Source: Bacteroidota bacterium (GTDB lineage Bacteria > Bacteroidota > Bacteroidia > 2-12-FULL-35-15). From it: a stretch of DNA of 64,000 nucleotides. This document shows positions 24,258-41,433 of the stretch, in pieces; within the stretch, counting starts at the first letter, position 1, and every line of letters starts with the position of its first letter. The notes beneath the pieces are model-generated. The model saw nothing but the letters and a program-made list of their open reading frames with translations. It did no database searches and was not told the origin of the DNA. The translations under genes and the position numbers were made by a program. The stretch covers positions 17,423 to 81,422 of the forward strand of contig JAZJZM010000019.1 of the NCBI GenBank assembly GCA_040389865.1, written 5' to 3'.

Positions 24258-24396
24258 TTCAAACCGGTTTGCCTTTTATTTCTATCTCCTCAGGATAAAT
24301 CACAATTGAAAGTTAAGGCACTTGCGATGATTTTAATCAACGTTTTTGATGATGCAATACATTTTTAAAACTTGATATTATATAGACTTTAGCGGA

Positions 24397-25176
24397 ATGA
24401 ATTATTTGATTGTTCCAAATACGTGGAAAGTTTTTTTGAATGAGACGGGCGATATGTTCCGTTTTACAGGCCGATTTTTTAAAGAAGTTTTTAACCCGCC
24501 TTATGAGTTTCGTGAACTGCTGAAACAATGTTTTTATATTGGCTACAAATCACTTGCCTTGGTGGGGATCACGGCATTTATTATGGGCCTGGTTATCACT
24601 ATTCAATCGCGGCCCACACTTGTTGAATTTGGTGCGGAAGCATGGCTTCCAAAAATGGTATCGGTATCACTTGTGAGGGAAATTGCTCCAGTGATCACTG
24701 CACTGATCTGTGCGGGAAAAATCGGCTCCAGTATTGGAGCAGAGCTTGGATCCATGAAGGTTACAGAGCAGATTGATGCAATGGAAGTTTCGGGAACTAA
24801 TCCTTTTAAATATTTAGTTATTACAAGAGTAATGGCAACTAGCTTGATGATCCCGGTGCTTGCCGTTTTTGCGGATGCTATTTCGCTATACGGAGGGTAT
24901 TTAGGCACAAACATACGTGGTGTAGTGAGTTGGGACCTTTACTGGAGCCAGGTTTTTCAAACCTTGGCATATAGTGATATTTTACCTTCGGTTTTTAAAA
25001 CATTTTTCTTTGGATTTGCTATTGGAATAATAGGCTGTTATAAAGGATATCACTCCCAAAAAGGAACAGAAGGGGTAGGGCAGTCGGCAAACTCCGCAGT
25101 TGTGATCTCATCACTTCTTGTTTTTATACTTGATTTGATTGCCGTTCAGATCATTGATATTTTAAATTTTACCTGA
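24397..25176 (+). CDS. mlaE: MlaE-family ABC transporter permease
   Basis: Multi-TM protein with an MlaE/YrbE-type central motif ('VSLVREIAPVITALICAGKIGSSIGAELGSMKVTEQIDAMEVSG'). Confidence 0.8.
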   Translation: MNYLIVPNTWKVFLNETGDMFRFTGRFFKEVFNPPYEFRELLKQCFYIGYKSLALVGITAFIMGLVITIQSRPTLVEFGAEAWLPKMVSVSLVREIAPVITALICAGKIGSSIGAELGSMKVTEQIDAMEVSGTNPFKYLVITRVMATSLMIPVLAVFADAISLYGGYLGTNIRGVVSWDLYWSQVFQTLAYSDILPSVFKTFFFGFAIGIIGCYKGYHSQKGTEGVGQSANSAVVISSLLVFILDLIAVQIIDILNFT

Positions 25177-25177
25177 G

Positions 25178-25954
25178 ATGGTCAATTCCGAAGATCCTAA
25201 AATAATCAATAAAACAGAAGTCAGGGATGTTCCTGTTATTCAAATCAGGAACTTAAATAAGTCTTTTGGGGATAATCATGTGTTGCGAAATTTTAATATT
25301 GATCTATACAAAGGCGAGAATCTTGCCGTAGTTGGTAAATCGGGCTCAGGTAAATCGGTGCTGATCAAATGTATCATTGGGTTGATGAAGCCGGATTCAG
25401 GAACCATTTTTATGTTTGAAAAAAATATTCCTGATCTGAATAATGCAGGGCTGGATCGGATCAGGGCAAAAGCAGGATTTCTTTTTCAAAGTAATGCACT
25501 CTATGATTCAATGACGGTGAGAGAAAATCTTGAATTCCCATTGAGAAGGCATCGTGCAGGTGTTCAGACAGAAAAAGTGAATGATCTGGTGATGGAAGCA
25601 TTAACAAATGTTGGTCTTTCAGAAACAGTAAATATGATGCCTGCAGAACTTTCAGGTGGAATGAGAAAACGTATAGCCCTCGCACGAACATTGATCCTTA
25701 GGCCTAAAATTATTTTTTATGATGAACCAACAACCGGACTAGACCCGATTACCGGAAAAGAAATTAGTAACCTGATATTGAAAGTTCAAAAATTATATCA
25801 AACATCATCTGTCATTATTTCTCACGATATGAGTTGTATAAAAATAACTTCGAATCGTGTTGTACTATTAATAGATGGGACTTGTTACGCAGAGGGAACA
25901 TATGAGAAACTAAAAAAGTCTGAGGATAAAAAGATTAATCAATTTTTCGAATAA
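25178..25954 (+). CDS. mlaF: MlaF-like ABC transporter ATP-binding protein
   Basis: Walker A 'GKSGSGKS', signature 'LSGGMRKRIALART', Walker B 'IFYDEPTTGLD'. It starts 2 nt after the mlaE stop. Confidence 0.85.
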   Translation: MVNSEDPKIINKTEVRDVPVIQIRNLNKSFGDNHVLRNFNIDLYKGENLAVVGKSGSGKSVLIKCIIGLMKPDSGTIFMFEKNIPDLNNAGLDRIRAKAGFLFQSNALYDSMTVRENLEFPLRRHRAGVQTEKVNDLVMEALTNVGLSETVNMMPAELSGGMRKRIALARTLILRPKIIFYDEPTTGLDPITGKEISNLILKVQKLYQTSSVIISHDMSCIKITSNRVVLLIDGTCYAEGTYEKLKKSEDKKINQFFE

Positions 25955-25957
25955 AAA

Positions 25958-26923
25958 ATGGAAAAAGACATATTGAAAAACATAAGGTTAGGGGTTTTTG
26001 TATTAGTTGGTGCCATTTTATTGATCATTGCGCTCTATGTAGTAGGTAATAAGCGAAATCTTTTTGGCAAAACATTTAGTATCAGTGCGAAATTTTATAA
26101 TGTGAATGGACTAATGAAAGGAAATAATGTTCGTTTTGCCGGAATAGATGTTGGTACTGTGGATCATGTGGAAATTGTGAATGATTCTTCAGTAAATGTA
26201 ATTATGATCATTGAAAAGGACCTTCAAAAATTTATAAAAAAAAATGCCTTAGCAAGTGTGGGAACTGATGGTTTGATGGGGAATAAACTTGTAAATATTA
26301 ATGTAGTAGATGAATTAGCGCCCGTTATTGAGGATGGAGATGAGTTGCGAACCCTACGTTCTATCGAAACAGATGAAATGACACGTACATTGAATGTAAC
26401 AAATGAAAACATTAAAGTGATCAGTGCAAATGTTCGAAATATTACGGATAAATTGAGTAGTAAGAATAGTTTGCTTACAATTTTGATGGATACTGTGGTT
26501 GCGGGAAATATAAAAACTGCGATCATAAATATAAAGGAGGTAGGGGGGCAAGCTGTTGCTGTTACCAAAAATTTCGAACAAATTACAAAAAAGATAAGGG
26601 ATGGGAAAGGTACTATTGGTGCTTTGATCACTGACAGTTCTCTTTTTTTAAATATAAATCATGTTGTGAATCAATTACAAAAAGTTAGTGATACTGCCGG
26701 AGTTGTTGCTGGTGATGTTTCATCCATTATAGGAAAAATAAAAGAAGGTGATGGTTCTGTTGGGAATTTATTGACCGATACCACATTCGTTCACAATCTT
26801 AACCAAAGTGTAAAAAGCATAAATAGTGCAGCAAAAGGTTTTGATGAAAACATGGAAGCGCTTAAGCATACTATTTTGTTAAGGAGATATTATAAGAAAC
26901 AAGATAAACAGAAATCTAATTAA
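25958..26923 (+). CDS. mlaD: MlaD/MCE-domain protein
   Basis: N-terminal TM followed by an MCE domain ('NGLMKGNNVRFAGIDVGTVDHVEI'). It is the third gene of the putative mlaEFD operon. Confidence 0.75.
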   Translation: MEKDILKNIRLGVFVLVGAILLIIALYVVGNKRNLFGKTFSISAKFYNVNGLMKGNNVRFAGIDVGTVDHVEIVNDSSVNVIMIIEKDLQKFIKKNALASVGTDGLMGNKLVNINVVDELAPVIEDGDELRTLRSIETDEMTRTLNVTNENIKVISANVRNITDKLSSKNSLLTILMDTVVAGNIKTAIINIKEVGGQAVAVTKNFEQITKKIRDGKGTIGALITDSSLFLNINHVVNQLQKVSDTAGVVAGDVSSIIGKIKEGDGSVGNLLTDTTFVHNLNQSVKSINSAAKGFDENMEALKHTILLRRYYKKQDKQKSN

Positions 26924-27126
26924 TTTTTTTCATTGATTACATTTTTATGCTAAATGCTCCAGCGCTCAAGAGACAAAAAAAACTTTTAGAAAGATTTTGA
27001 CAAACAATTAAATGATCAGGTGATAAAAATCAAAAAATAGGTTGATTCGAATCATTGAACAAACAGGATTCTGAAAATACATTTGTGTACAATTAAATTG
27101 ATAATAAATTCTTAAAATTTTAAAAA

Positions 27127-27588
27127 ATGACACTAGTATTAAAAAGAAATGGAAACTTGTTTCCAAGAGTAGTAAATGATTTAATGGAAAGCGGAACTGT
27201 ATTCAGTCCTGATCTTCTTGATTTTAATAATAATTTAATGAACTGGGATTTCTCTTCAAAAGTACCATCAGTAAATATTACGGAGACTGAAAAGGAATAC
27301 AAAATTGAATTGGCTGCTCCGGGGCTAGAAAAAAAAGATTTCAAAATTGAAGTAGAAAATAAAGTTTTAATCATTAGTTCTGAAAAGGAGGAAGAAAAAA
27401 AAGAAGAGGATAAAAATTATAAGAGAAGAGAATTCTCTTACAGTAGCTTTTCTCGTTCATTCCAATTGCCTGAAGATATACTTTCGGATAAAATTGACGC
27501 AAAGTATGAAAATGGAATTTTGAAATTATCAGTTCCTAAGAAAGAGGTATCTGTATCAAAACAAAAAAAAGAAATAAAAATTTCTTAA
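27127..27588 (+). CDS. Hsp20/alpha-crystallin small heat-shock protein
   Basis: 'PSVNITETEKEYKIELAAPGLEKKDFKIEVENKVLIISSEK...FSYSSFSRSFQLPEDI..DKIDAKYENGILKLSVPKKE' is a canonical ACD core. Confidence 0.85.
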   Translation: MTLVLKRNGNLFPRVVNDLMESGTVFSPDLLDFNNNLMNWDFSSKVPSVNITETEKEYKIELAAPGLEKKDFKIEVENKVLIISSEKEEEKKEEDKNYKRREFSYSSFSRSFQLPEDILSDKIDAKYENGILKLSVPKKEVSVSKQKKEIKIS

Positions 27589-27608
27589 AAAAGTATTGTA
27601 AAAAAGAT

Positions 27609-27639
27609 CGCCCCTTAAGCGGGGCGCACTTTTTTGTTT
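27609..27639 (+). terminator. Probable rho-independent terminator after hsp20
   Basis: GC stem 'cgcccc'/'ggggcg' followed by 'cacttttttgttt'. Confidence 0.5.
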
Positions 27640-27736
27640 AATGGCTTTTGAAAAAAAGCATTAAAAATAACACCGTGTTAATTCATAAATGAAGATAAAA
27701 TAACTGCCATATTAAGACTTAATAATAAACCTGTAT

Positions 27737-28819
27737 ATGAAAGAAGTATCCGTTTTAAGTGAGCCCCAAATAGCTCCTTCTGTATCGTTGATTATTCCCA
27801 CAGACAAAAGATATCCTCAATATAGGATTGATGAAGGCCGGGTCAAAGCATTAGTAAAAAGAGCAGAAAATGAATTGTTAGATGAGTTTTCTGAAAAAAA
27901 AACTATGGTTATAATCAACAAACTTCGTAAACTTATTTCTACTATTGACCATAAGCAATTATCAAAGGCTCTGGCAGTATTTGTTTCTTTAGAAAAAGAA
28001 AAAATGATCTATTTGCCTTTTCATGTTCAGGAAAAACTTATTATAGATTCATCTTTTGAAATAAGAGACTTGTTATATTCCACGAAAAACAGTTATGGTT
28101 ATTTAGTGTTAGTAATTGCCAGTCATCACGCAAAAGTTTATCGTGGTTACAATAATAAATTAGTTGAAATTGATTTAAGCAACATGCCTTTAAACGTAGA
28201 AGAGGTTAAAAGGGATCTACCTTCGAAGGTTGCTAATTTTTCAACTGCTGATGCCGTTAAGGAAATTAATCTTGAAAAATACCTGAAAAAGATTGATGAT
28301 GCTTTAACCGTGAAGCTTAATGAAATGGAATCTCCTGTAATTGTATGTGGAGTTCAAAAAACTTTAGGTCATTTTAAGAAGCTAACAAAAAACAGTAAAA
28401 AAGTAGTCGCCTTTGTGGAAGGGAGCTATGAAAAATCTTCCCCGAAAGAATTATATAAGGCGATTGAACCCGCTATTGCAAGTTGGCGTGAGTTGGATCA
28501 GCAAAATTCACTTAATAAGTTAGAAGACGCTGTAAATAGAAAGGAATTTGTGTATGGAATAGAGAATGTTTGGCGTGCGGCAATGGAAAAAAAAGGACGG
28601 TTATTAATTGTTGAGAAAGATTTTGTTAGTACTGCAAAAATTGGGAAGGATGAATATACTTTGAACACTACTGTATTTGATAAGAACGATCCAAAGGTAT
28701 TCCCTGATGTTGTGGATGATTTAATTGAACTGGTATTGAAAAATGATGGTGATATTGCCTTCGTTGAAAGTGGTAGATTAGAGAAATACAAAGGCATTGG
28801 ATTAATTACCCGTTACTAA
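27737..28819 (+). CDS. eRF1/Pelota-fold protein lacking the GGQ motif (bacterial eRF1-like; putative ribosome-rescue or hibernation factor)
   Basis: Segments resemble eRF1 domain 2 ('SYGYLVLVIASHHAKVYRGYNNKLVEI', 'RDLPSKVANFSTAD', 'SPVIVCGVQKTLGHFKKL') and domain 3 ('FVYGIENVWRAAMEKKGRLLIVEKDF'). The GGQ position is occupied by NFS/FST. Confidence 0.55.
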   Translation: MKEVSVLSEPQIAPSVSLIIPTDKRYPQYRIDEGRVKALVKRAENELLDEFSEKKTMVIINKLRKLISTIDHKQLSKALAVFVSLEKEKMIYLPFHVQEKLIIDSSFEIRDLLYSTKNSYGYLVLVIASHHAKVYRGYNNKLVEIDLSNMPLNVEEVKRDLPSKVANFSTADAVKEINLEKYLKKIDDALTVKLNEMESPVIVCGVQKTLGHFKKLTKNSKKVVAFVEGSYEKSSPKELYKAIEPAIASWRELDQQNSLNKLEDAVNRKEFVYGIENVWRAAMEKKGRLLIVEKDFVSTAKIGKDEYTLNTTVFDKNDPKVFPDVVDDLIELVLKNDGDIAFVESGRLEKYKGIGLITRY

Positions 28820-28988
28820 GAAAGTGGTAGCATATTCAAATAAAAAACTATATGAATATGCGCATTTTGAATGAGTAAAGAAAAATGCAATAGCTTTCAT
28901 GAGTTATTTTAAACTTTGAAATGAAATTTTATTTGGCTCTTGATCTTTAGTGGATTTTATTTTCCAACCGTATTTTTGAAAAGCTGAT

Positions 28989-29180
28989 ATGAATAATAAT
29001 AAATTTTATTTGTTAATTATTTTTATACTTCTTGGAATTGTTGCATTTCTTGGTGTTCTTTTGTTTATGGGTGATTTAGGGAAGTACTGTGTGCCTATTT
29101 CTAAAGAGATGCATCGTCTTCCTGTAAATACTTTGAGTAAAGATTCATTAAAAATTGTTGATTCATTGACTAAGGAGTAA
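28989..29180 (+). CDS. Small hypothetical membrane protein (63 aa)
   Basis: An ORF in an otherwise empty gap. One TM segment 'LLIIFILLGIVAFLGVLLFM'. Confidence 0.3.
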   Translation: MNNNKFYLLIIFILLGIVAFLGVLLFMGDLGKYCVPISKEMHRLPVNTLSKDSLKIVDSLTKE

Positions 29181-29240
29181 TATTCTGTTCATTTTTTGTA
29201 ATGTTGAAGGTTCTTTAAAAGGAGCTTCAACATTATAGAT

Positions 29241-29666
29241 TTGTATTCATTTGAATTATTCGCAATTATGAACGCAAAACTTATTTTATTCGGATTACTT
29301 CTCTCGGGAATTGTCATATTGTATTCAGTTAATGTATACCAAAGTACTACAGGTCCACACGGAGGAGAATTAGAACCAGCTGAAAATTTCAACATTGAAT
29401 TAAAGGAAGCATTTCCTAATCTGCAGTGTTACCTTCTTGATCAAAAGCTATTACCAATTAGCAACAAAGGGGTATTATGCGAAATACGGTTCTTCTTACC
29501 AAATGAGACCAGCGTTGACCTTAATTTAAAACCATTTGAGGATGATGGATTTATTCTGGAGTCAAATACGATAGTGTATAATTCGTGCCGGGTAACTTTT
29601 AATATGTCCGGAAAATCTGTTTCAGCAAAATTTAGCAAAGAAAATCTTATTGTTCATGATAAGTAG
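29241..29666 (+). CDS. Hypothetical membrane-anchored protein (141 aa)
   Basis: N-terminal TM 'LILFGLLLSGIVILYSV'; no recognisable domain. Confidence 0.35.
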   Translation: MYSFELFAIMNAKLILFGLLLSGIVILYSVNVYQSTTGPHGGELEPAENFNIELKEAFPNLQCYLLDQKLLPISNKGVLCEIRFFLPNETSVDLNLKPFEDDGFILESNTIVYNSCRVTFNMSGKSVSAKFSKENLIVHDK

Positions 29667-29743
29667 TAGGTAATTTATGATGTTAAGTTTAAAGAAAACG
29701 AATCGAAAAATAGTTGATGGATTTTAATTTAATAAAAGAACAT

Positions 29744-30385
29744 ATGTTTAAAGATAGATATGATGCAGCGATGGAACTTGCGTTAGAACTGGAAAAATAT
29801 AAAGGTAATGACGGAATCGTTTTGGCTATTCCTCGTGGCGGAGTACCAATAGGTTATGTAGTTGCAAAGGATCTTGGATTTCCGTTGGAAATCATTCTTT
29901 CAAAAAAAATTGGGCATCCTTCTAATCCTGAATATGCTATTGGTTCAGTTTCATTAGATGGAATTGTAATTAATGATGATGTATCCGATGTTTCAACTGA
30001 GTATATTTATAAAATAGCCGATAAAATCCTTCAGGACCTGAAAACTAAGTTTAAATACTATATGGGCGATCGGGAACCAACGAATTTAAAAAATAAAACC
30101 GTGATTATTGTTGATGATGGAATTGCAACGGGTAGCACTATTATTGCTACTATTAATTCGGCCAGGAAAATGAATCCCAAAGAAATTATTGTTGCAGCAC
30201 CGGTTGCCTCGCCACTATCGATCCAAAAAATAGAAAGTATTTCGGATGAAATTATTATTCTTTTAGCGCCTCAGAATTTTATGGGTGTAGGGCAATTTTA
30301 TTATGATTTTTCACAAGTAGAAGATGAAGAAGTGATTTTGCTATTGAAAGAAGCAAACGCCAATGCGAAATTGGTCAAAACATAA
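29744..30385 (+). CDS. Predicted phosphoribosyltransferase (type I PRT fold)
   Basis: 'MFKDRYDAAMELA...IVLAIPRGGVPIGYVVAKDLGFPLEI' and the PRPP-binding 'VIIVDDGIATGSTIIAT'. ATG 29744 was chosen because it fits the family N-terminus; the ORF is open from 29714. Confidence 0.75.
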   Translation: MFKDRYDAAMELALELEKYKGNDGIVLAIPRGGVPIGYVVAKDLGFPLEIILSKKIGHPSNPEYAIGSVSLDGIVINDDVSDVSTEYIYKIADKILQDLKTKFKYYMGDREPTNLKNKTVIIVDDGIATGSTIIATINSARKMNPKEIIVAAPVASPLSIQKIESISDEIIILLAPQNFMGVGQFYYDFSQVEDEEVILLLKEANANAKLVKT

Positions 30386-30531
30386 TATTCTCAAGTGTCT
30401 CCTGGAGAAACAATCAGATAGCTTATCTTTTTTTATTTATTATCAACTCCCTTACAGTTGATAAGGTACCCTAAATGGTTTATTCGTGGGAGGCATGCGT
30501 TTTAGGTGTCGGGAAAATGTTAGGATTAGAG

Positions 30532-30852
30532 TTATTGGTAGCTTGCATCTGCTATTTCCATTTTTGATATCAATTCTGAAACTTTAGTATCGGAATATAC
30601 GCCATATGCATTAATTAATACACCTTTGATCTTGTTTTTGTCAGAGCTAATAGCGTACACTATTGAATTGTCTTCAGGGTCAGATATACCTTCGAACCGG
30701 TAAAATTCAACAATTTTAAATTCATTCGGATTAAAGTCGCACTGTTTTTCGGAGCAATAAAGTTTATCTTTTTGTTCCGTAAAATCATAAGTAAACCCCC
30801 TTTTTTTTAGATCATTTACTGCATCTAATAATGAATCATATTGGCGTTTCAT
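30532..30852 (-). CDS. Small conserved hypothetical protein (106 aa)
   Basis: The ORF ends 30 bp from the Usp gene stop. No domain was recognised. This small family is sometimes mislabelled as PRPP synthetase in Bacteroidota. Confidence 0.45.
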   Translation of the reverse strand: MKRQYDSLLDAVNDLKKRGFTYDFTEQKDKLYCSEKQCDFNPNEFKIVEFYRFEGISDPEDNSIVYAISSDKNKIKGVLINAYGVYSDTKVSELISKMEIADASYQ

Positions 30853-30881
30853 TTGTTATGTATTAGTTTGATATGTACTTA

Positions 30882-31715
30882 TTAAGGATGAACTACAAAA
30901 ATTGGATATGTTGCTATTGCGCTTATTGTTGCTAATAATGGTTGTTTTCGAAAAAACCTTTCAAGAATATTTCTATGCCGTTCTTCCATCACTACCAGAT
31001 CTGTTTGGTTTTCGAGAATAAAATCATCAAGTGAGTCATCAATGTTGTCGGTGAAATTTATATCAACATTGTATTTTATTTTTCCATCTAATGATTTTTT
31101 TATTTCTTCTTTTATTCCGATGAATGCTTTTTGGCTCTTTTCATTATCTTCCTTGGTTAAAAACAAAAATGTAATTTGGGCCTCAAAAAAATTTGCAAAT
31201 TCATAAAACTGTTCCAGTGCGATACTATCTATCTTGTCAACTATAATTGGATAAAATATGTTTTTATACTTTTCAAACAAAAGGTCTTCCGGAACTATTA
31301 AAAGTGGACATTCTGACTCCTTGCTTGCTTTATATGTATTTGTGCCAAAAAAAAATTGTTTCAGATTATCCGGGCCATTAGTACCCATAACAATCATTGT
31401 GTTTTTCGTCACCGCTGATGCGATAGTTTTCGACAGGGATTTTGTAGTTATATCAACTTCATATGTTGTTGGGATATTATACATCTTGTTAATTTCAACA
31501 CTCATTTGTTTTAACTTATTCGAAACCTTGAGAGAGTTGTTTCGGATGTTACTGCCAACTCCCTCACCAAGACTTACCGCAGTTTCAAAATGAATTTGCT
31601 GTACATTAAATAATATCAGTTCTGCATTGATAACTTGAGCAAGCATTGCCGCGTATTCCGAAGCGTTGTTTGCTGAATCTGTAAAGTCAATAGGACAAAT
31701 AATTGTTGTTTTCAT
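30882..31715 (-). CDS. Universal stress protein, tandem UspA domains
   Basis: 'MKTTIICPIDFTDSANNASEYAAMLA..' and a second half 'KNIFYPIIVDKIDSIALEQF...LVVMEE' give two Usp-like alpha/beta units. Confidence 0.8.
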   Translation of the reverse strand: MKTTIICPIDFTDSANNASEYAAMLAQVINAELILFNVQQIHFETAVSLGEGVGSNIRNNSLKVSNKLKQMSVEINKMYNIPTTYEVDITTKSLSKTIASAVTKNTMIVMGTNGPDNLKQFFFGTNTYKASKESECPLLIVPEDLLFEKYKNIFYPIIVDKIDSIALEQFYEFANFFEAQITFLFLTKEDNEKSQKAFIGIKEEIKKSLDGKIKYNVDINFTDNIDDSLDDFILENQTDLVVMEERHRNILERFFRKQPLLATISAIATYPIFVVHP

Positions 31716-31733
31716 AAATAAGGAACATATTTA

Positions 31734-31894
31734 AGAGCCTGTTTAAATTTTATATAAAAGAATAACAATATTGCTTGTTGGAGCCATCCAATTCTCGACT
31801 CCGCTCGAAATGACCATGTGCGCTGGTATTTCGAGCGGAGTCGAGAAATCGTGTGAAGGCTGGAAACTGTTTGAATAAAATTTAAACAGGCTCT
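31734..31894. mobile_element. MITE-like element copy A (161 bp) with 20-bp terminal inverted repeats and a central 22-bp-stem hairpin
   Basis: The TIRs are 'agagcctgtttaaattttat' (31734-31753) and its reverse complement 'ataaaatttaaacaggctct' (31875-31894). The central 'aattctcgactccgctcgaaat'-gaccatgtgcgctggt-'atttcgagcggagtcgagaaat' is a perfect inverted repeat. Confidence 0.7.
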
Positions 31895-31928
31895 AAAAGG
31901 CTGAAAAATTATTGGCGTTTCTTATTCT

Positions 31929-32597
31929 TTAATAGACAAATACTTCTGTATCAATTTCAAGTTTGTTTTCAACAAGACCAATTCCTGGCGCTGACCAAGC
32001 TGCACGTGCTGCATCTCTTTTTTCAGCCCAAGAACGAACTTTTCCTGTTAGAATAACTTTGTTCCCAATTGTTTCTATGTTGATTTTTTCTGCATCAATT
32101 GTTGCGCTCCTGTGGAATGCAGAAACGATCTTTGTTTTTATTTCTCTTGCAGTGACCTGTGGTGTTACTTTTATATTATTACTTATTCCACGAACCCCCA
32201 ATAAATATTGTACTGCGCTGCTTGCTGCGTTTTTTTGAAATTCCCAATCGGTTTCTCCTTCTAGTGTTAACCACCCGTCTTCTACCTTTAATTTTATTTT
32301 TTCTTGTTGAACTGCGCTATGCCATTTTAGAGCGCTAATTGCGGCTTCGGCTATTTCTGTATCACTCTTTTTTCCATGCCCGGCTAATTTCACTTCAATA
32401 TCCACAGCAACTGCTTTTACTCCGGTAACTCTTTTGGTCGCTTTTTCTGCGGTTAGTTTTTTGGAATATGTATCTACTAGTCCAGAAAGGGTTACGACTC
32501 CGTTTTTTACTGCTACTCCAATTTCTGTAGCTTTCATTAATGGTTCCCATTTAAGTTCGTCCATAACATCTTTTTGAATTTCTGAATCTGTTCTCAT
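31929..32597 (-). CDS. BON-domain protein (two BON domains; OsmY-like)
   Basis: '[19 protein letters not shown]' is a typical family start. The BON units are '[36 protein letters not shown]' and '[41 protein letters not shown]'. The ORF is open upstream to 32654. Confidence 0.75.
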
Positions 32598-32785
32598 ACT
32601 TTTTTGTTTTTTTAATAATAAATATTTAAATAATTTTATGCAAAGTAAACTCATTATTGAAATCTATTCAATGATGAATTACAAAAAATGGAATGATCCA
32701 CATCACGAGTTTATTTTTTTTAATTGAAAATTTTATTTGATTCATGATACGGTAAATTTTCAGAAAAAAAAGGTTTAGGACTTTT

Positions 32786-33169
32786 TTACATCCATTTAGA
32801 AAGGAATTGAGCTAATTCTTTTCTTAGGCCATTGAAAATTTTTTCGAACCCTTCCACGCTATTTCTTTGCATTGAATGGTCCAAAAACTTTTTACTTTCA
32901 TTTGCAACCGCTTTTTTATTTACTTTTTCTTCGAGTGATCTTTCATGGCTGTTAATTTCATGTTTTAAGATATCTAGCTGTTCGTTTTGAGCGATTAGCT
33001 GGTTTTGAAAATGTTCAACAAAGGCGCGTACTTCTTTTGACGTATTTTTTTTTGCAATTTCTGAAATTCTATTTTGCATGATCTGAATTTCGTCTTTATA
33101 AAAAACTAATTTGCTTAGCCACGTTTTGTGATCCTCGTGCAACTGGTAAATATTTTTTGTAGTTTCCAT
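32786..33169 (-). CDS. Hypothetical coiled-coil protein (127 aa)
   Basis: Intact ORF co-oriented with the flanking Usp and BON genes; no domain recognised. Confidence 0.45.
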   Translation of the reverse strand: METTKNIYQLHEDHKTWLSKLVFYKDEIQIMQNRISEIAKKNTSKEVRAFVEHFQNQLIAQNEQLDILKHEINSHERSLEEKVNKKAVANESKKFLDHSMQRNSVEGFEKIFNGLRKELAQFLSKWM

Positions 33170-33273
33170 GTTTTATTTATTTAGTTAATAGTGTGTTGAT
33201 CTTCCATTTTAAAAGCCTATGGTAAATTATTGTAAAAGGGTTATTTGGTTTCAATCATTAAAGGAGTGTTTTT

Positions 33274-33657
33274 TTAATAATTGTTTTCACTGATTTTCCC
33301 GCTGAGTGCTTCACCTTGCCGGTTTTGTTCTTCAAGTGTCCAACAATCAGTTACTGTTGTTTCGAGCCAAACTCGCCATGAGTTCCTGTACACCTTAACT
33401 GATATGCCATATTCGCTGTTGAAACATTGCTCAAGATGGGATACAGTCATTTGTGGTGTAATAATTATACATGTTTTTTCTTCATTCGCACCGTACTTAG
33501 CTATTGTTTTAACAGTAGATTTTACCAGTTTATGCGGAGATAATGATGTAGTTGTGAGTTTTGTTAAAAAAAAATCGATTTTCAAAAAGGGAAACATCTT
33601 TGTAAATTCTTCTTGTATTTCAAATAATGTACTATTGTCGTCAACTGTTATTTTCAT
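33274..33657 (-). CDS. Hypothetical protein (127 aa)
   Basis: Intact ORF co-oriented in the stress island; an ORF on the opposite strand (33281-33685) overlaps it and is judged less likely. Confidence 0.4.
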   Translation of the reverse strand: MKITVDDNSTLFEIQEEFTKMFPFLKIDFFLTKLTTTSLSPHKLVKSTVKTIAKYGANEEKTCIIITPQMTVSHLEQCFNSEYGISVKVYRNSWRVWLETTVTDCWTLEEQNRQGEALSGKISENNY

Positions 33658-33711
33658 TTTAATATGTTGTATTTCATTGTTCTAAAGCGTCAAATTATTT
33701 TTTTGTGAGTT

Positions 33712-34533
33712 TTATTCTGGTAAAGCAAGTAATGGAATGTGAGTATGGAATGCCATACGCTTTGTATTCCTTTCCTGGAAAATATTTTCGAATAATGTGT
33801 GTTTGCGAGGTATCATTACAATTAGATCAGCGTTGTGTTCCTTTACAAATTCATTTATCCCTTCTACTATATCTTCATTCTCCACAAAGTCGAATGAATG
33901 ATTTAAACCTTCAAATGAATGGACCAGTTGTGTTCCACCAACTGTTTTTTTTATCGGTGAAATTAATTCTCCTTCACTTGAAACATTCAAGATATATAAT
34001 TGAGAATTGAAAAGTTTAATGAATTCTTTTATAGGCTCCATGGATCTGGCATCCATATTTTGATAGTCACAAGCTAATACAATTTTTCTGAGATTCTTAA
34101 ATACCACCTTATCGTTAATGGCAAGAACAGGGCGTTTTGCTTTCCGAATTAAAGTGGTGGTAACGCTGCCAATTAATTTTTCGCTCAAATAACCTGCCCC
34201 ACGAACCCCCATTACAATTAGATCAATTTTTTCTTCTTCTACTATTTCATTTATTTCATCAACGGCAAAACCAAGTGTAGTTTTACACTCAATGTTCAAT
34301 TCACTTCCGTGCTTAAATCGTATATTTTCCTTTATTTTGGTTAATACTTTTAAATTGTCTTTTTCTATTTCATCTAAAGGCATTATAAAAGGAACATCTG
34401 ACGGAACGGTAGGTATATGAAATACATGAAATAAAAGAAGTTTCGATTTGGTAAGCTTTGCTAATTCAGCTGCGTAATTTATTGCATTGTTTGCGCTGTC
34501 TGAAAAATCTGTGGGGGCGAGAATTGTTTTCAT
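33712..34533 (-). CDS. Universal stress protein, tandem UspA domains
   Basis: 'MKTILAPTDFSDSANNAINYAAELA...' and a second Usp unit '...LIVMGVRG..'. It is a paralog of the 30882-31715 gene. Confidence 0.8.
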   Translation of the reverse strand: MKTILAPTDFSDSANNAINYAAELAKLTKSKLLLFHVFHIPTVPSDVPFIMPLDEIEKDNLKVLTKIKENIRFKHGSELNIECKTTLGFAVDEINEIVEEEKIDLIVMGVRGAGYLSEKLIGSVTTTLIRKAKRPVLAINDKVVFKNLRKIVLACDYQNMDARSMEPIKEFIKLFNSQLYILNVSSEGELISPIKKTVGGTQLVHSFEGLNHSFDFVENEDIVEGINEFVKEHNADLIVMIPRKHTLFENIFQERNTKRMAFHTHIPLLALPE

Positions 34534-34934
34534 TTTTTATACGTTTTTTTAAAATTTAAAGAATGACCAAAAATAATCGACAGATAAAATATCCCATTGT
34601 GATGGAACAATGAGCAGATAAATTAAGAAGGCAAAACGGATGAAAATGAATTGGATATCCCACTGTTTAATTATCCCCCTTAGCAATTTATTTATTTAAC
34701 AAATGTACACCAGCCAATGATTATTGTGAATGATTGAAATCAGTGGATTAGGTGATTCTTTATATCGTGATCCGTTTGGCGGATTTATGTTCGTACAATT
34801 GCTATCTATGGCTAATCAATATTGAATAAAAAAGTGAAATTTTAGGATATAAGTAAAATCATTTTTTTGTTTGACCAAACTCATTATTTAGTTAGGTGTT
34901 CAATACTACCTTTGAAAAAAGAAATATATATACT

Positions 34935-35339
34935 ATGACATCCTTAGAGAATTTACATTACGCGATTGGTCAGCTTGCTTATACTGTTGCAACTGCTGAT
35001 GGATATATTCAGCCGCAAGAGCGGCAAAAATTTCATGACATCATTGACGCTGAACTTCGATGCAATGATTATGATTTCAATATAACAGATATTATTTTTC
35101 GAATTATGGAGAAAGATAAATTAGATCCTGAAACGAGTTATAACTGGGCTATGAATGAAATTAAACTTAACAGTCATTACTTGAGTCCGAGCCTTAAAAA
35201 ATCTTTTATTACAGTGATGGAAAAAATTGCTAAAGCTTACTCCATTGTTACTGATGATGAGAGAAACATTATTGAAAGATTTAAAAAAGAGATCGAACCG
35301 ATTAATGGAGATCCTGTATTTTACGAAAAAGAAGCCTGA
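34935..35339 (+). CDS. TerB-like (tellurite-resistance TerB family) small protein
   Basis: The N-terminal 'LHYAIGQLAYTVATADGYIQPQERQKFHDII' resembles the TerB helical fold. The start could instead be the upstream ATG at 34896. Confidence 0.4.
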   Translation: MTSLENLHYAIGQLAYTVATADGYIQPQERQKFHDIIDAELRCNDYDFNITDIIFRIMEKDKLDPETSYNWAMNEIKLNSHYLSPSLKKSFITVMEKIAKAYSIVTDDERNIIERFKKEIEPINGDPVFYEKEA

Positions 35340-35822: not shown

Positions 35823-36314
35823 ATGGAAAAGAAAGGGATAAACCTATTTATTGTTGACGACAATAGATTAATGGTTTCAACACTTAAACAATATTTGCAA
35901 AATCGGTTTGGAGCCATTATGCAAATTTCAATTTTTAATAATGGTGAAAGCTGTTTGGAAAAAGTTGATTCTGATACTCAGATAGTGATATTGGATTATT
36001 ACATGAATGGCAAAAATGGTTTAGATATTTTGAAGTTAATAAAAGCCATTAACCCTAAAACAGAAGTTATCATGTTGTCCAATAATGAGGATATTGGACT
36101 TGCAATTGAAACATTCAGAGCAGGCGCCAAAGATTATGTGATAAAAGGTCAGGGTTCATGGAAAAAAATTACCCGTCTGGTAAATCTCATTATTACAGAG
36201 CCTATTCGAATTATGGTTAGGGAGTTTGGCGTATCAAAATTTACCGTCATATTTCTCATGACATTTGTAACTATGGGGCTTGCGGTGTTTTGTGTATTAT
36301 ATTTGATGAAATAA
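35823..36314 (+). CDS. Response-regulator receiver domain protein with a C-terminal transmembrane helix
   Basis: REC motifs 'INLFIVDDN', 'ILDYYMNGKNGLDILKLIK' and 'KDYVIKG'. The C-terminal 'FTVIFLMTFVTMGLAVFCVLYLM' is hydrophobic. Confidence 0.75.
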   Translation: MEKKGINLFIVDDNRLMVSTLKQYLQNRFGAIMQISIFNNGESCLEKVDSDTQIVILDYYMNGKNGLDILKLIKAINPKTEVIMLSNNEDIGLAIETFRAGAKDYVIKGQGSWKKITRLVNLIITEPIRIMVREFGVSKFTVIFLMTFVTMGLAVFCVLYLMK

Positions 36315-36687
36315 TAAAAAACAATAATTTTTTTTGATCGGATACACCGTATCATTTGCAAAAAAACAGAAACAGAACTAGTTTTTTTTCGTTTATCCAA
36401 TGTGTATTGATAAATATACCGCCATCAAAATTTATAGGTTCGGAGTCGGCATATTTTTAGAGAAATAGCAGTATCTCGATAAAAATCGTTAAGTTTAGCG
36501 GAAAGGAGCTGATTTTATTCATTCCTGTCAATATTATGGCTTGTTTTATTGTCTGCCAAAAAACACAAAAATGTGTGAATTATGTAACTTTTTGTAAAAG
36601 TTGTGTAACAAATACAATTTTAATTTTAATCACCTTTGTTAATATTGTTTTAAAACAAACAAGATTTTGAAATTATACATCAAATAC

Positions 36688-37248
36688 ATGGTAAGCGCCC
36701 GCTGTAAAATGGCGGTAAAAGAAGAGTTGAAGAAACTTGGATTGCATTTCACTCCCGTTGATTTAGGTGAGGTGGAGATCATGGAAAATATCACTTCGGA
36801 ACAGCGTGAACAGCTCAAAATTGCTTTACACGAGTCCGGACTTGAATTGATGGATGATAAGAGAGCTGTGTTGATCGAAAAAATAAAAAATGTAATTATT
36901 GAAATGGTTCATCATTCTGATGAAATGATCAAAATGAATTTTTCAGATTTTTTAAGTGAAAAATTAAGTCATGATTATACCTATCTGGCAAATTTGTTTT
37001 CTGAAGTTCAGGGTACTACAATTGAGCAATTTATCATCTCTCATAAAATTGAAAGGATAAAAGAATTGATGATCTATGGTGAACTTAACATTACGGAAAT
37101 TGCCTGGAAAATGAATTATAGTAGCGTTGCCCATTTATCCAACCAATTTAAAAAAGTTACTGGGCTTTCTCCTTCGCATTTTAAACAATTGAAGGATAAA
37201 AGACGCAGTCCGATTGAAGATATCGGAAATTCAAGCGAAATAAATTAA
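36688..37248 (+). CDS. AraC-family transcriptional regulator (small Bacteroidota type)
   Basis: C-terminal AraC HTH 'ITEIAWKMNYSSVAHLSNQFKKVTGLSPSHFKQ'. ATG 36688 ('MVSARCKMAV') is a family-typical start; the ORF track begins at TTG 36667. Confidence 0.75.
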   Translation: MVSARCKMAVKEELKKLGLHFTPVDLGEVEIMENITSEQREQLKIALHESGLELMDDKRAVLIEKIKNVIIEMVHHSDEMIKMNFSDFLSEKLSHDYTYLANLFSEVQGTTIEQFIISHKIERIKELMIYGELNITEIAWKMNYSSVAHLSNQFKKVTGLSPSHFKQLKDKRRSPIEDIGNSSEIN

Positions 37249-37271
37249 ATAAGCGATTATCTCAACTTTAC

Positions 37272-40200
37272 ATGGCAAAGAGAAAAAAATCGGAGGAATT
37301 AATTATTGCCAACAAGGAACTTATCTTTCAAAATGAAGAGAAGGAAAAGCGGGCAGAAGAGTTAATTATTGCAAATATCGAACTTGCTTTTCAAGATGAA
37401 GAAAAAGAAAAACGTGCTGCGGAGTTAATTTTAGCTAACATAGAGTTAGCTTTTCAGGATGTGGAGAAAGAAAAAAGAGCGGCTGAATTAATTATTGCTA
37501 ACAAGGAACTTGTATTTCAAAACGCAGAGAAAGAAAAACGTGCGGCCGAGTTGATCATTGCTAATAAAGAACTTGTTTTTCAAAATGATGAGAAAGAAAA
37601 ACGGGCTGAGGAATTGATCGTTGCTAATAAAGAACTTGTTTTTCAGAATGATGAAAAAGAAAAACGTGCTGCGGAGTTGATCATTGCAAACAAAGAACTT
37701 GTTTTTCAAAACGATGAGAAAGAAAAACGTGCCGCTGAGCTGATCGTAGCTAACAAAGAACTTGCTTTTCAAAACGAAGAGAAAGAAAAACGTGCAGCCG
37801 AGTTAATTGTTGCTAATAAAGAACTTGTTTTTCAGAATGATGAAAAAGAAAAACGAGCTGCGGAGTTGATCATTGCAAACAAAGAACTTGTTTTTCAAAA
37901 CGATGAGAAAGAAAAACGTGCCGCTGAGCTGATCGTAGCTAACAAAGAACTTGCTTTTCAAAACGAAGAGAAAGAAAAACGTGCAGCCGAGTTAATTGTT
38001 GCTAACAAAGAACTTGCTTTTCAAAATGACGAGAAAGAAAAACGAGCGGCTGAGTTGCTCATCGCTAATAAAGAACTGATCTTTCAAAACGATGAGAAAG
38101 AAAAACGAGCGGCAGAGCTAATTGTAGCGAACAAAGAACTTGCTTTTCAAAATGATGAAAAAGAAAAACGTGCAGCCGAGTTATTCATAGCTAATAAAGA
38201 ACTTGTATTTCAAACCGGGGAAAAAGAAAAACGTGCCGCGGAGTTGGTAATAGCCGACATAGAGCTTGTTTTTCAAAATAAAGAAAAAGAAAAGCGCGAA
38301 ATCGCAAATAAAGAACTTGAAGCATTAAGTTATTCCGCAAAATTAGCATCTCAATATTCTCTTAGCCTGATTGAAGCAAGTCGGGATCCCTTAGTTACTA
38401 TCAGTACAGAAGGCAAGATCACTGATATGAATCAGGCAACTGTAAATATAACAGGCTTGACTCGTGAAAAACTTACGGGTACCGATTTTTTTGATTATTT
38501 CACCGAACCACAAAAGGCACGTGAAGTATATCAGGAAGTATTTGCGAAAGGATCTGTTGCCGATTCTCCGCTTACTCTTCGTCATAAAGCAGGGAAACTT
38601 ACTGATGTATTGTTCAATGGCTCGGTTTATAAAGATGATCAGGGAAATGTACTGGGAGTGGTGATCGTGGCGAGAGATGTTACTGCCCAAAAATTACTTT
38701 CTAAATATTCGTTAAGTCTTATTGAGGCAAGTCTTGATCCATTGGTTACGATAAGTACTGAAGGTAAGATCACGGATATGAATGAGGCCACTGCAAATAT
38801 TACCGGTATGAGCCGTGACCAATTAACGGGTACCGATTTTTTTGATTATTTCACCGAACCACAAAAGGCTCGTGAAGTTTATCTGGACGTGTTTGCGAAA
38901 GGTTCTGTTGCCGATTCTCCACTTACACTTCGTCATAAGGATGGGAAGCTTACGGATGTATTATTCAACGGATCGGTTTATAAAGACGACAGAGGGAATG
39001 TGCTTGGTGCCGTTGTGGTAGCAAGAGATATTACTGAACAAAAAAGAATAGCAACTGAATTGACTGAAGCGAAAATATTTGCCGAGTTGGCAACAGGTAT
39101 TGCGGAGGAAGCAAAAGCTAAAGCCGAAAGTGCCACACGAATAGCCGAAGATGCCGTGAAAGCGAAGCAACAATTTTTGTCAAACATGAGTCACGAAATT
39201 CGTACACCAATGAATGCGATCATTGGATTTACGAAAGTAGTATTAAAAACAGAGCTGTCGGTAAAACAAAAGGAATATTTGTCGGCCATAAAAATGAGTG
39301 GTGATGCATTGATCGTGCTCATTAACGATATACTCGATCTTGCTAAGGTAGATGCAGGAAAAATGTCCTTTGAGAAAACACCTTTCAAAATGAAAGCATC
39401 CATAGCATCCATGCTTCATTTGTTTGAGACAAAAATTCAGGAAAAGAATTTACAGCTTGTTAAGGAATACGACAATAAAATTCCTGATGTGTTAGTTGGC
39501 GATCCGGTTCGTTTACACCAGATCATATTAAATTTGGTGAGTAACGCTGTAAAGTTTACAACTTATGGAAAAATTACTGTAAGTGTTCATTTAGTGAGTG
39601 AGGACGAAGAAAAAGCAACCATTGAATTTGCAGTTATGGATACCGGGATTGGAATAGCGGAAAATAAAATAGAAAGAATCTTCGAAAACTTTCAGCAGGC
39701 AACCAGCGGCACTTCAAGATTATTTGGTGGAACAGGATTAGGACTTGCAATTGTTAAACAATTGGTAGAACCGCAAGGGGGAAGTCTTTTTGTAACAAGT
39801 AAAATTGATGAGGGTTCTACTTTTAGTTTTACGTTAACTTTTCAAAAAACAAAAGCGGAAGCCGAATTGGTAACTGAAGTTGCGGAATTGGATTCCGAAA
39901 TAAAAAATATAAAAGTATTGGTGGTGGAAGATATTGCACTCAATCAATTACTAATGAAAACATTGTTGGATGATTTCGGATTTGAACGCGATATTGCTGC
40001 AAATGGACAAATAGCCATCGAAAAATTGCAAGCTAAATCTTATGATATTATTTTGATGGACTTGCAAATGCCTGTAATGAATGGCTTTGAAGCTACCGAA
40101 TATATTCGTAATAAAATGAATTCTAAGATCCCGATCATCGCCTTAACTGCCGATGTAACTACAGTGGATCTGGCAAAATGCAAAGCGGTTGGCATGAATG

Positions 40201-40676: not shown

Positions 40677-41110
40677 TGAAAAACGAAAGCAAAATAAAAC
40701 TTTTCCTCGTAGATGACGATGCATTGTTTTTAAAATCCTTGGAAATTGAGTTTCTGGAACACGCGGATTTTACAATTGAAACATATTCAACAGGTGAACT
40801 TTGCCTTAAAAATATATCTCACAGCCCTGATGTGATCATTTTAGATTATCACCTTGATGGCATCGATAAAAATGCGATGAATGGAATGGAAACATTGGAT
40901 AAAATAAAAGCTTCCCATCCTGATATTCCTGTAATAATGCTATCTTCTCAGGATAAAATTGATGTTGCCATAAACTGTATGCATCACAGAGCCTTTGATT
41001 ATGTGGTGAAAAGCGAAACCGCTTTCATGCGTCTGCAAAAGATCATCACAACTATTTTCCGTTATAAAAAAATGGAAAAAGAATTAAGTTGGTATATGGA
41101 TAGGATGTAA
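40676..41110 (+). CDS. Single-domain response regulator (REC)
   Basis: 'KLFLVDDDALFL', 'ILDYHLDG..MNGMETLDKIK' and 'FDYVVKS'. The ATG overlaps the kinase stop (TAATG), implying translational coupling. Confidence 0.85.
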   Translation: MKNESKIKLFLVDDDALFLKSLEIEFLEHADFTIETYSTGELCLKNISHSPDVIILDYHLDGIDKNAMNGMETLDKIKASHPDIPVIMLSSQDKIDVAINCMHHRAFDYVVKSETAFMRLQKIITTIFRYKKMEKELSWYMDRM

Positions 41111-41433
41111 TTTATGTATTTAATTCATTAATGCAATATTTGGGATTTGTTTGCCAGATAAATATATGGTAAACATAAAATTAGGAGCGTTGCCTACAAA
41201 GCAGGGCTCCTTTTTATTAATATCAAAACTAAATGGCTTTAAAAGGCGCGAGTTTGTGGTAAAGATATAGCAAATTATAAAGCTGAAATTGCAATGTAAT
41301 TGTCATTGATCAACGTTAGTTCAACACTTTATTTTTGTATCTTCGTTAAGTACAACTTTTTTTAGGATTAAAAGTCCATTCCCGCTCCCTTGATCAATAA
41401 GTACAAAATTAATGTTCAATAAATTAGATTATA

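Follow-up and report, generated by a model that had tools for sequence, protein, structure and literature searches.

A gene cluster around a Balon-family hibernation factor is probably part of an Fnr-type stress regulon of Bacteroidota

This study concerns a cluster of stress-related genes around a gene for a Balon-family ribosome hibernation factor in a Bacteroidota bacterium (assembly GCA_040389865.1, contig JAZJZM010000019.1, positions 17,423 to 81,422 of the forward strand); the whole 64-kb stretch is referred to as the window. We suggest that the cluster, located at about 24.3-35.3 kb if the mlaEFD genes are included, represents the local part of a Bacteroidota-wide stress regulon, which would be activated by a Crp/Fnr-type protein through boxes of the form TGAY-N4-RTCA. 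Our estimate for the probability of this reading is about 0.65. An initial annotation, made from the letters alone, had described the genes as a dormancy-type set next to a block of PAS-domain kinases, with a possible link between the two. The shared operator and the recurrence of the same families in other species support the view of a stress or dormancy-type set of genes under common regulation; control by the kinases was not supported.

The open reading frames (ORFs) of the window were listed and scanned against Pfam and NCBIfam. All genes named in the initial annotation were present where it had put them. The cluster consists of the following features:

24397..26923, plus strand: mlaE-mlaF-mlaD-like ABC lipid-transport operon (PF02405, PF00005, PF02470), a conserved neighbour of Balon
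27127..27588, plus strand: Hsp20/alpha-crystallin small heat-shock protein (PF00011, E 6e-26)
27609..27626: G+C-rich hairpin plus T-run between hsp20 and balon, an intrinsic terminator or attenuator
27737..28819, plus strand: Balon-family ribosome hibernation factor (PF18845, NF052287, PDB matches), aeRF1-like; the eRF1-like gene of the initial annotation
28989-29180, plus strand: 63-aa membrane-anchored small ORF, function unassigned
29268 (ATG, 132 aa) or 29241 (TTG, 141 aa) to 29666, plus strand: membrane-anchored small ORF
29714..30385, plus strand: phosphoribosyltransferase (PRTase)-domain protein of the TT1426 type (PF00156)
30532..30852, minus strand: u106, a 106-aa protein of a widespread small-protein family
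30882..31715, minus strand: Usp1, a protein of the length of a tandem universal stress protein (Usp), with divergent second half
31929..32597, minus strand: protein with three BON domains (OsmY-like; Pfam)
32786..33169, minus strand: u127a, 127 aa
33274..33657, minus strand: u127b, 127 aa
33712..34533, minus strand: Usp2, tandem universal stress protein (two Usp stretches, E 6e-35)
34549..34690, minus strand: 3' remnant of a DoxX-family gene, about 43 codons
34938..35339, plus strand: TerB-domain protein, 133 aa from ATG (PF05099, 27 bits against a cutoff of 24.4)

The palindrome TGAT-N4-ATCA, which is of the FNR/Anr type, is present in exact form eight times in the window against 1.76 expected, and five of the eight copies fall within about 0.8 kb of relevant upstream DNA, i.e. 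in front of mlaE, hsp20 (two copies), the BON gene and Usp2. Since some lineages have the arms TGAC/GTCA, the general form of the box is TGAY-N4-RTCA. The initial annotation had proposed a search for a motif common to the transcription units, and an FNR-type operator was found upstream of at least five of them in or next to the cluster. The boxes and promoter elements, together with an outlying candidate member of the regulon (o129), are:

24328..24339, plus strand: mlaE operator box TGATTTTAATCA, with its centre 63 nt upstream of mlaE
24358-24365, plus strand: -7-like element of the mlaE promoter TACATTTT
27021-27032, plus strand: distal hsp20 operator box TGATAAAAATCA
27043-27054, plus strand: proximal hsp20 operator box TGATTCGAATCA, abutting TTGaac
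27078-27085, plus strand: hsp20 -7 element TACATTTG
32694-32705, minus strand: exact BON box TGATGTGGATCA
32672-32683, minus strand: imperfect proximal BON box TGTAATTCATCA, followed by TTGaat
32640-32647, minus strand: -7-type element of the BON promoter TACTTTGC
34731-34742, minus strand: box TGATTTCAATCA of the (DoxX remnant)-Usp2-u127b unit, 23 nt before the -7 element
34700-34707, minus strand: -7 element TACATTTG of the same unit
34872-34883, plus strand: degenerate TerB box TGACCAAACTCA, divergent from Usp2, 23 nt before the -7 element
34907-34914, plus strand: TerB -7 element TACCTTTG
53039-53428, minus strand: o129, a 129-aa membrane protein, the outlying candidate
53485-53496, minus strand: o129 box TGATCCTACTCA, 23 nt before the -7 element
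53454-53461, minus strand: o129 -7 element TACCTTTG

These promoters have a common layout. Boxes often occur in tandem at 22 bp, as do the two hsp20 boxes (measured from centre to centre), and TTG comes immediately after the proximal box, with TAnnTTTG 23 nt beyond the end of the box. In Bacteroidota promoters, TTG and TAnnTTTG correspond to the -33 and -7 elements. For the composite pattern TGAY-N5-TCA-N23-TAnnTTTG, the window has four matches where 0.01 would be expected, and all four (hsp20, Usp2 unit, TerB, o129) are intergenic and correctly oriented. The BON promoter shares this layout, except that its proximal box is imperfect, and the box-N23-TAnnTTTG spacing is found in many orthologous promoters as well. 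If the transcription start is deduced from the -7 consensus, the proximal box would be centred near -41, the position of class II activators. A scan with a sigma-70 pattern, which is uninformative for Bacteroidota promoters, gave 38 matches against 42 expected, i.e. no enrichment.

Comparison with other species shows that the boxes are conserved in place. One genome per species was scanned, yielding 80 Bacteroidota loci (labelled L) with relatives of the window Balon. The mlaE box is at the same position in L003-L005, and boxes precede mlaE also in L014, L015, L019, L034, L045 and L071. In orthologous promoters, such as those of hsp20 in L003-L006, the half-sites are invariant and the N4 spacer varies; such a combination is the footprint expected of a dimeric DNA-binding protein. 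The BON box is found in the same place in L003 and L004, tandem boxes precede BON in L030 and L033, and orthologous tandem boxes precede an intact DoxX gene in L001. As in FNR/Anr-type regulons, a shared TGA-N6-TCA palindrome lies upstream of several units more often than expected by chance and is conserved in orthologous promoters. A one-mismatch box upstream of u127a (33246-33257) was rejected, as it is not conserved in L003.

By sequence and modelled fold, the eRF1-like gene encodes a Balon-family ribosome hibernation factor, with a predicted function in the A site of vacant or stalled 70S ribosomes, where such factors act together with EF-Tu and inhibit translation. The protein matches PF18845 (baeRF_family3) with E 4.5e-30 and 105.7 bits against a cutoff of 31.5, and its sole NCBIfam match is NF052287, "AOC03_06830 family ribosome hibernation factor", which is Balon (E 1.9e-79, residues 7-360). 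In a phmmer search the same residues align with 8RD8_B, the Balon chain of P. urativorans (E 2.8e-29); chain B of the P. urativorans ribosome complexes 8RD8/8RDV/8RDW is the only solved relative by sequence. With an AlphaFold (AF2) model built from 22 homologues (pLDDT 80) as query, Foldseek ranked 8RDW_B first (E 5.5e-29, TM 0.63), followed by Msmeg1130 (E 4e-19) and then by aRF1 (E 9e-18) and eRF1. In full-length sequence and in fold, the window protein is closer to Balon than to aRF1, eRF1 or Pelota. Neither GGQ nor NIKS was found by inspection of its 360-aa translation; absence of these catalytic and stop-codon motifs of aeRF1 is a criterion for Balon that comes from its description (PMC10901736).

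The genes that accompany Balon in the window recur around it elsewhere in the phylum. Families within 10 kb of Balon were counted in 81 sources (the 80 loci and the window); many contigs are short and the counts are lower bounds. Tandem Usp was found in at least 32 of 81 sources, MlaF in at least 31, Hsp20 in at least 28, MlaE and MlaD in at least 25 each, u127b-like proteins in at least 17 and BON in at least 16. Families that also recur near Balon are PRTase, a second Usp family, YdjM, PpsA, a PLD-type protein, Pyridox_ox_2, PEBP, thioredoxin, DUF892, dienelactone hydrolase and PolX. Gene order from mlaEFD to BON is unchanged in the closest relatives (85-93% identity), and in L003 it is kept through Usp2. 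In distant lineages gene order is shuffled and the same families recur near Balon: many Chitinophagaceae have a tandem Usp about 20 nt 3' of Balon and a u127b homologue upstream of it, PRTase adjoins Balon in L089, L030 and L058, and a weak TerB homologue does so in L009.

The box itself is likewise recurrent. Exact boxes number 162 in the 80 loci, and 118-123 of them lie in intergenic DNA, which makes up 12% of sequence; the density is 0.79 per kb in intergenic DNA vs 0.04 per kb in genes. Among 768 palindromes (all those with 4-nt arms and spacers of 2, 4 or 6 nt), the box ranks first in intergenic DNA, ahead of A/T-run palindromes. In 19 of 80 loci, a box is centred 60-130 nt upstream of Balon itself (mode 74 nt), where 0.009 per locus or about 0.7 in total would be expected. 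Other genes preceded by boxes encode Hsp20, Pyridox_ox_2, BON, MlaE, Usp, PpsA, PLD, DUF892 and REC-Crp, a regulator discussed below.

L089 (16195-19471) has a PRTase-Balon operon on one side of an exact box and, in divergent orientation on the other, genes for an erythromycin-esterase-like protein and an M50/CBS peptidase. This pairing resembles the PRTase/esterase gene pairs of actinobacterial dormancy regulons.

The genes might also have come together by chance, or arrived as a horizontally acquired island, and lack common control. The shuffled order between lineages would fit with this, as would the local flux seen in the window (a MITE insertion and two deletions, described below) and the absence of boxes from some genes. 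Against it stand the operator statistics, the positional conservation and the fact that the genes are found together again and again in many species. Apart from two G+C-rich repetitive genes, the G+C of the window is low (about 0.30-0.37), and no integrase or mobility genes are present. Because its G+C (0.29-0.34) is the same as that of neighbouring genes and synteny with mlaEFD is conserved, the cluster is not a mobile island, and we consider this explanation very improbable.

As for the protein that binds the boxes, the likely regulator is a fusion response regulator composed of a receiver (REC), a cNMP_binding and a HTH_Crp domain (REC-Crp), together with a PAS-domain kinase of about 400 aa. 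A REC-Crp protein of 351-354 aa is encoded within 10 kb of Balon in 6 of 80 loci, directly beside Hsp20 in five of these six. The family is very large in Bacteroidota, with more than 7,900 clusters at E<=1e-20; the best 120 matches are mostly 56-65% identical. REC-Crp is usually preceded by a PAS-HisKA-HATPase kinase, which has about 400 aa in most loci, and these partner kinases form an orthologous group of their own with 38-60% mutual identity. A box lies upstream of REC-Crp or of its kinase operon in at least eight independent loci (L007, L062, L076, L059, L083-85, L086, L088, L089). The recognition helix of REC-Crp, E..IR, aligns with the E..SR motif of FNR, and is presumably compatible with a TGA-type half-site.

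A search that started from the regulator recovered the same families: DoxX-Usp-u127b-Hsp20-Usp-MlaEFD, cbb3 oxidase genes, nos genes and PRT-Balon. In L086 and L088, cbb3 oxidase genes are followed by a u127a homologue or thioredoxin, the PAS histidine kinase (PAS-HK) and REC-Crp, and then by DoxX, Usp, a u127b homologue, Hsp20, Usp and finally MlaEFD; the kinase, DoxX and fixS/ccoNO are each preceded by boxes. In L083, tandem boxes and a u127b homologue come directly after REC-Crp, and another REC-Crp locus extends into OsmC, cytochrome c and nos_propeller genes. In the literature we found no description of the REC-Crp regulator class or of a Bacteroidota Usp/Hsp20/Fnr regulon.

L007 and L083 belong to one Flavobacteriales metagenome-assembled genome (MAG; GCA_947449575.1), which carries two REC-cNMP-Crp paralogues about 60% identical to each other. 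One is near Balon and has no adjacent kinase; a PAS kinase and a u127b homologue accompany the second.

The closest signalling genes in the window are of another kind:

35823..46944, plus strand: the adjacent signalling block as a whole, a neighbour not shown to be a regulon member
35823-36314, plus strand: REC with C-terminal hydrophobic tail (Pfam)
36667-37248, plus strand: AraC (Pfam)
37272-40676, plus strand: PAS-HK-REC hybrid kinase, HK1 (Pfam)
40676-41110, plus strand: REC (Pfam)
41434-46944, plus strand: CheB-CheR-PAS-HK-REC fusion, CheBR-HK (Pfam)

In the reading suggested by the initial annotation, this block would sense redox, oxygen or light and directly control the cluster. Its adjacency, the PAS domains of its kinases and the ability of hybrid kinases to relay, possibly to a distant REC-Crp, speak for this, as does a related AraC-HK-REC block (74-85% identity) within about 6 kb of Hsp20-Balon-MlaEFD in a Flavobacteriales MAG, L009. 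However, a Crp/Fnr-type palindrome is not the type of site expected for an AraC-type regulator, and the promoters of the block contain no box in the canonical arrangement. HK1 and CheBR-HK share only 27-29% identity with the partner kinases of REC-Crp, a level typical of kinases in general, compared with 38-60% within the partner group. In the closer relatives L004 and L005 the block does not lie within about 3 kb of the cluster, nor is it among the recurrent Balon neighbours in the 80 loci. The regulatory link between the cluster and the neighbouring kinases is unsupported by these sequence comparisons, and direct control by the block seems quite improbable to us.

One-mismatch boxes upstream of AraC and CheBR-HK were rejected, as they have no promoter architecture. 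The CheBR-HK gene (41434-46944) encodes an unusual single polypeptide of 1836 aa with CheB methylesterase, CheR methyltransferase, several PAS domains, HisKA-HATPase and a receiver, and both hybrid kinases continue for about 140 aa after the receiver with no domain match, possibly as Hpt.

Several points weigh against the proposed Crp/Fnr-type regulon. Among the window ORFs scanned against Pfam (most of those of at least 100 aa) there is no Crp-family gene; candidates were found in loci of other species only. No box was found for the 63-aa, 141-aa and PRTase genes or for Usp1-u106, the upstream region of which is now occupied by a MITE; membership in the regulon can thus be demonstrated for only part of the genes of the initial annotation. 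Consensus elements are the basis for activation, the -41 position and the putative signal. The NF052287 score of the Balon protein, 267.8 bits, is below the equivalog cutoff of 330. In this lineage, balon has neither a box nor a canonical -7 element upstream; because of this and of the hairpin after hsp20, we infer partial read-through from hsp20. Hairpins are found at the same place in L003, L004, L006 and L007. The balon leader (27650-27736) is conserved in L003 and L004, has no recognisable promoter and is a possible read-through or attenuation element after the hsp20 hairpin. A scan of the whole window with Rfam gave no RNA family at gathering score.

A further point is that a classical one-component Crp/Fnr protein, sensing through a Fe-S cluster or cNMP, could occupy the operator in place of REC-Crp. 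In L032 and L045, plain Crp/Fnr genes of 211-212 aa with an E..SR helix are found no more than 10 kb from Balon, and their products could bind the same box, which is a subset of the FNR/Anr consensus TGA-N6-TCA (PMC3721108). But these are only two of 80 loci, neither with a box at the usual upstream position, in contrast to REC-Crp with its six loci, its own boxes and its place directly beside the DoxX-Usp-Hsp20-MlaEFD and cbb3 clusters. We therefore regard a one-component regulator as unlikely and REC-Crp as the better candidate.

The last point concerns the signal. Because the same boxes and the same regulator flank cbb3 oxidase and N2O-reductase genes elsewhere, the signal is most likely oxygen or respiratory limitation, and the cluster may be induced in hypoxia or dormancy. 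Alternatively, the regulon may answer general growth arrest or stress on the envelope, as in stationary phase, cold, osmotic stress or desiccation. Osmotic or thermal stress would be compatible with Hsp20 and BON as well, and the presence of BON, Hsp20, MlaEFD and PLD-type members points to stress on envelope or lipids. The description of Balon reports its discovery in cold-shocked and stationary-phase cells and describes its neighbours as thermal, osmotic and acid stress genes (PMC10901736). Against this alternative, the genes flanked by boxes and REC-Crp include ccoNO, fixS and ccoI of the cbb3 oxidase, nos_propeller and cytochrome c genes, and the partner kinase has PAS domains. Of ten longer members of the u106 family examined, seven are fused to the hemerythrin HHE domain (PF01814), a module that binds O2, NO or iron. 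The type of box and the set of genes also mirror the low-oxygen lxa and Anr regulons (PMC3721108). General growth arrest or envelope stress as the signal appears rather unlikely to us, less so than a one-component regulator.

The model we propose for the Crp/Fnr-type regulon is as follows. Under oxygen or respiratory limitation, the dedicated PAS histidine kinase would phosphorylate the REC-cNMP_binding-HTH_Crp regulator, both of them presumably encoded elsewhere in the genome. The regulator would bind as a dimer to one box or to two boxes 22 bp apart and, from the proximal box next to the -33 TTG, act as a class II activator rather than a repressor. This would turn on mlaEFD, hsp20 (together with balon by probable read-through of the hairpin), BON, Usp2-u127b and TerB. 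The products would then arrest and protect the cell during growth arrest, Balon by sitting in the ribosomal A site and Hsp20 by holding unfolded proteins; further contributions would come from Usp, BON, TerB, PRTase and the newly noted small proteins. A wider version of the model would be a phylum-wide hibernation regulon analogous to DosR, leading from PAS kinase via REC-cNMP-Crp to tandem TGAY-N4-RTCA boxes and co-inducing Balon, Hsp20, Usp, BON, MlaEFD, cbb3 oxidase and u127a/u127b, the last two as dormancy factors and possibly partners of Balon or the ribosome. We consider this version conceivable, at somewhat less than even odds.

The core of the finding, Balon together with Hsp20 and OsmY-type genes, is a kind of neighbourhood already published in 2024. 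The operons described there typically combine Balon with Hsp20, OsmY/OsmC, RaiA, RtcB and others (PMC10901736); the Balon-family factor, Hsp20 and OsmY/BON-type neighbours are shared with our cluster, and RaiA, the commonest Balon neighbour in the published operons, is not in it. The passages of the paper on these genes deal with neighbourhoods only, and the strings "Bacteroid" and "Usp" are absent from its main text (PMC10901736). The box, the promoter layout, mlaEFD, tandem Usp, PRTase, u127a/u127b and the REC-Crp/PAS-HK pair go beyond what it describes.

Two known regulons deserve closer comparison. In M. tuberculosis, the DosR regulon contains hspX, several tandem Usp genes, the PRTase-domain protein Rv0571c and a PNPOx-like protein, is controlled by a two-component system and serves survival in non-replicating hypoxia. 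DosR has a LuxR/NarL-type output domain and recognises a GGGACT-type box; its kinases DosS and DosT sense through heme-GAF, not PAS, domains. The initial annotation had drawn a parallel to DosR, which is apt also in that the eRF1-like gene belongs to the same family as Rv2629, a member of the DosR regulon; Rv2629 and Msmeg1130 are described as hypoxia-induced mycobacterial Balon homologues (PMC10901736). The DosR-type box (GGGACTwwAGTCCC core) was found in the window three times at three mismatches vs 3.9 expected, each time inside an ORF, and no GerE/LuxR-type regulator or GAF kinase was detected by Pfam in the signalling block. Since there is neither a DosR box nor a NarL-type regulator, the cluster is not a member of the DosR system; its operator is of the FNR type and its putative regulator has a Crp-type output domain.

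The other is the low-oxygen-activated (lxa) locus on the B. cenocepacia chromosome, which encodes six Usp proteins, alpha-crystallin and phospholipid-binding proteins. A TGA-N6-TCA motif recurs between its genes at 17 points, low oxygen induces the locus, and persistence under anoxic conditions requires it (PMC3721108). Multiple Usp, alpha-crystallin, BON/phospholipid-binding proteins and an Fnr-like motif are shared with the window cluster, and the lxa motif is a 4-bp inverted repeat that has TGA-N6-TCA in common with Anr/Fnr boxes (PMC3721108). However, lxa belongs to another phylum, is not syntenic and comprises about 50 genes, including those for PHA synthesis and ribonucleotide reductase; the lxa paper mentions neither Balon nor an eRF1-like gene, and its candidate regulators are Anr-like one-component proteins (PMC3721108). 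Induction of lxa was shown experimentally (PMC3721108). With FNR/Anr/FixK class II promoters in general, the cluster shares the TGA-N6-TCA core, and cbb3 oxidase and Usp as targets; its boxes would also be centred near -41, in overlap with the -35/-33 region. It differs in the putative regulator, which has an N-terminal receiver and not a Fe-S cluster motif, in the Bacteroidota -33/-7 elements of its promoters and in the frequent tandem boxes at 22 bp. On balance, we judge by analogy that the cluster is a Bacteroidota variant of the DosR- or lxa-type regulons.

The window cluster itself is an ordinary instance, and what it exposes is apparently an undescribed, phylum-wide circuit around a hibernation factor. 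To our knowledge, control of Balon expression outside mycobacteria has been little studied; Balon was recognised only in 2024 (PMC10901736). A simple and testable operator and promoter layout now ties it to a defined gene set across a phylum that is among the most abundant in the environment and on hosts, and a class of regulators is put forward in which a receiver domain is joined to a Crp-type DNA-binding module. If our assumptions are true, Bacteroidota genomes and MAGs can be read for a signature of dormancy or low-oxygen readiness, a few conserved proteins of unassigned function become available as possible hibernation factors, and the circuit is the third way, independent of DosR and Anr/lxa, in which this physiological problem has been solved.

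The small proteins u127a, u127b and u106 are good candidates for new factors, as judged from their sequences. The initial annotation had flagged all three as candidate dormancy factors; u127a (32786) and u127b (33274) are conserved members of the proposed regulon, and u106 (30532) is not among them. The u127b family is restricted to Bacteroidota, has a conserved C-terminal motif, WLETTxTDxWTLEEQNxQGE, and matches no Pfam or NCBIfam family. Its model (pLDDT 80) consists of two beta-alpha-beta units plus a helix, for which a Foldseek search against PDB gave weak tandem beta-grasp-like matches, none of them significant (best E 0.57). In several Chitinophagaceae (e.g. L036, L060), the u127b homologue lies within about 125-500 nt upstream of Balon. 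The predicted helical protein u127a is 52% identical to the product of L086 7148-7528, a gene that has an exact box upstream and adjoins the regulator; it has weaker relatives (c25, c95), which lie between REC-Crp and Hsp20 in other loci. The u106 family is widespread, with 1410 representatives at E<=1e-3. Neither u127a nor u106 has sequence relatives in PDB.

Some details of the remaining genes may be added. The two tandem-Usp paralogues of the initial annotation were recovered, Usp1 and Usp2 being 27% identical across their full length; both Usp domains are detected in Usp2, and in Usp1 only the first one by Pfam. The closest solved relative of the PRTase is T. thermophilus TT1426 (1WD5, E 8e-33). 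The start of the BON gene is most likely 32597 (222 aa, the length of orthologues) and not 32654, and no signal peptide was seen in its product. The TerB gene most likely starts at ATG 34938 and not at GTG 34896.

The cluster also bears traces of recent rearrangement. It contains a miniature inverted-repeat transposable element (MITE), as the initial annotation had noticed, and a second copy is located farther downstream:

31734..31894: MITE copy, 161 bp, with internal hairpin and terminal inverted repeats AGAGCCTGTTTAAATTTTAT
54432-54594: second MITE copy, 163 bp

The terminal inverted repeats are perfect over 20 nt, and the first copy lies 18 nt upstream of the Usp1 start. Four repeat arms are present in the window against 0.04 expected. 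Both copies have TA on one flank and AA on the other, with no clear target-site duplication visible. Since the element is missing from the orthologous site in three close relatives (L003-L005), its insertion is recent and lineage-specific.

The 362-bp spacer between Usp2 and TerB contains the 3' remnant of DoxX, a gene intact in the closest relative and present in intact form in L003; its 5' part was removed by an internal deletion of about 300 bp. The DoxX promoter and one operator box survive, and the leader of the Usp2 unit now consists of about 170 nt of pseudogene sequence. We had also considered an inverted TerB gene at this place, an idea that was dropped as the closest relative has DoxX in the form of a 147-aa gene upstream of Usp2. 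Another difference concerns a MacA/MacB-type efflux trio of about 3.3 kb (membrane-fusion protein, ABC ATPase, FtsX permease), which separates the 63-aa ORF from the 141-aa ORF in L003-L006. At 29181-29267 the window cleanly lacks the trio (compared with L003 11444-14940), probably through a lineage-specific deletion.

Beyond the cluster, REP-like "tcatttcgagc..." hairpin repeats occupy intergenic positions 1287-1330, 48224-48260 and 50532-50575. Upstream of the PLD gene, one such repeat looks like an operator box; this box, at 48224, was rejected because it lies inside the repeat. The two G+C-rich genes are found towards the ends of the window. The first, at 1629-13307 on the plus strand, is a giant ORF of 3892 aa with G+C of 0.43-0.55, far above its surroundings; it contains about 640 copies in a 9-nt register, with G-x-x / GST-type collagen-like triplets mixed with other segments. 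The second G+C-rich region (0.49-0.51), at 61782-63995 on the minus strand, contains a 737-aa ORF that runs near the window end.

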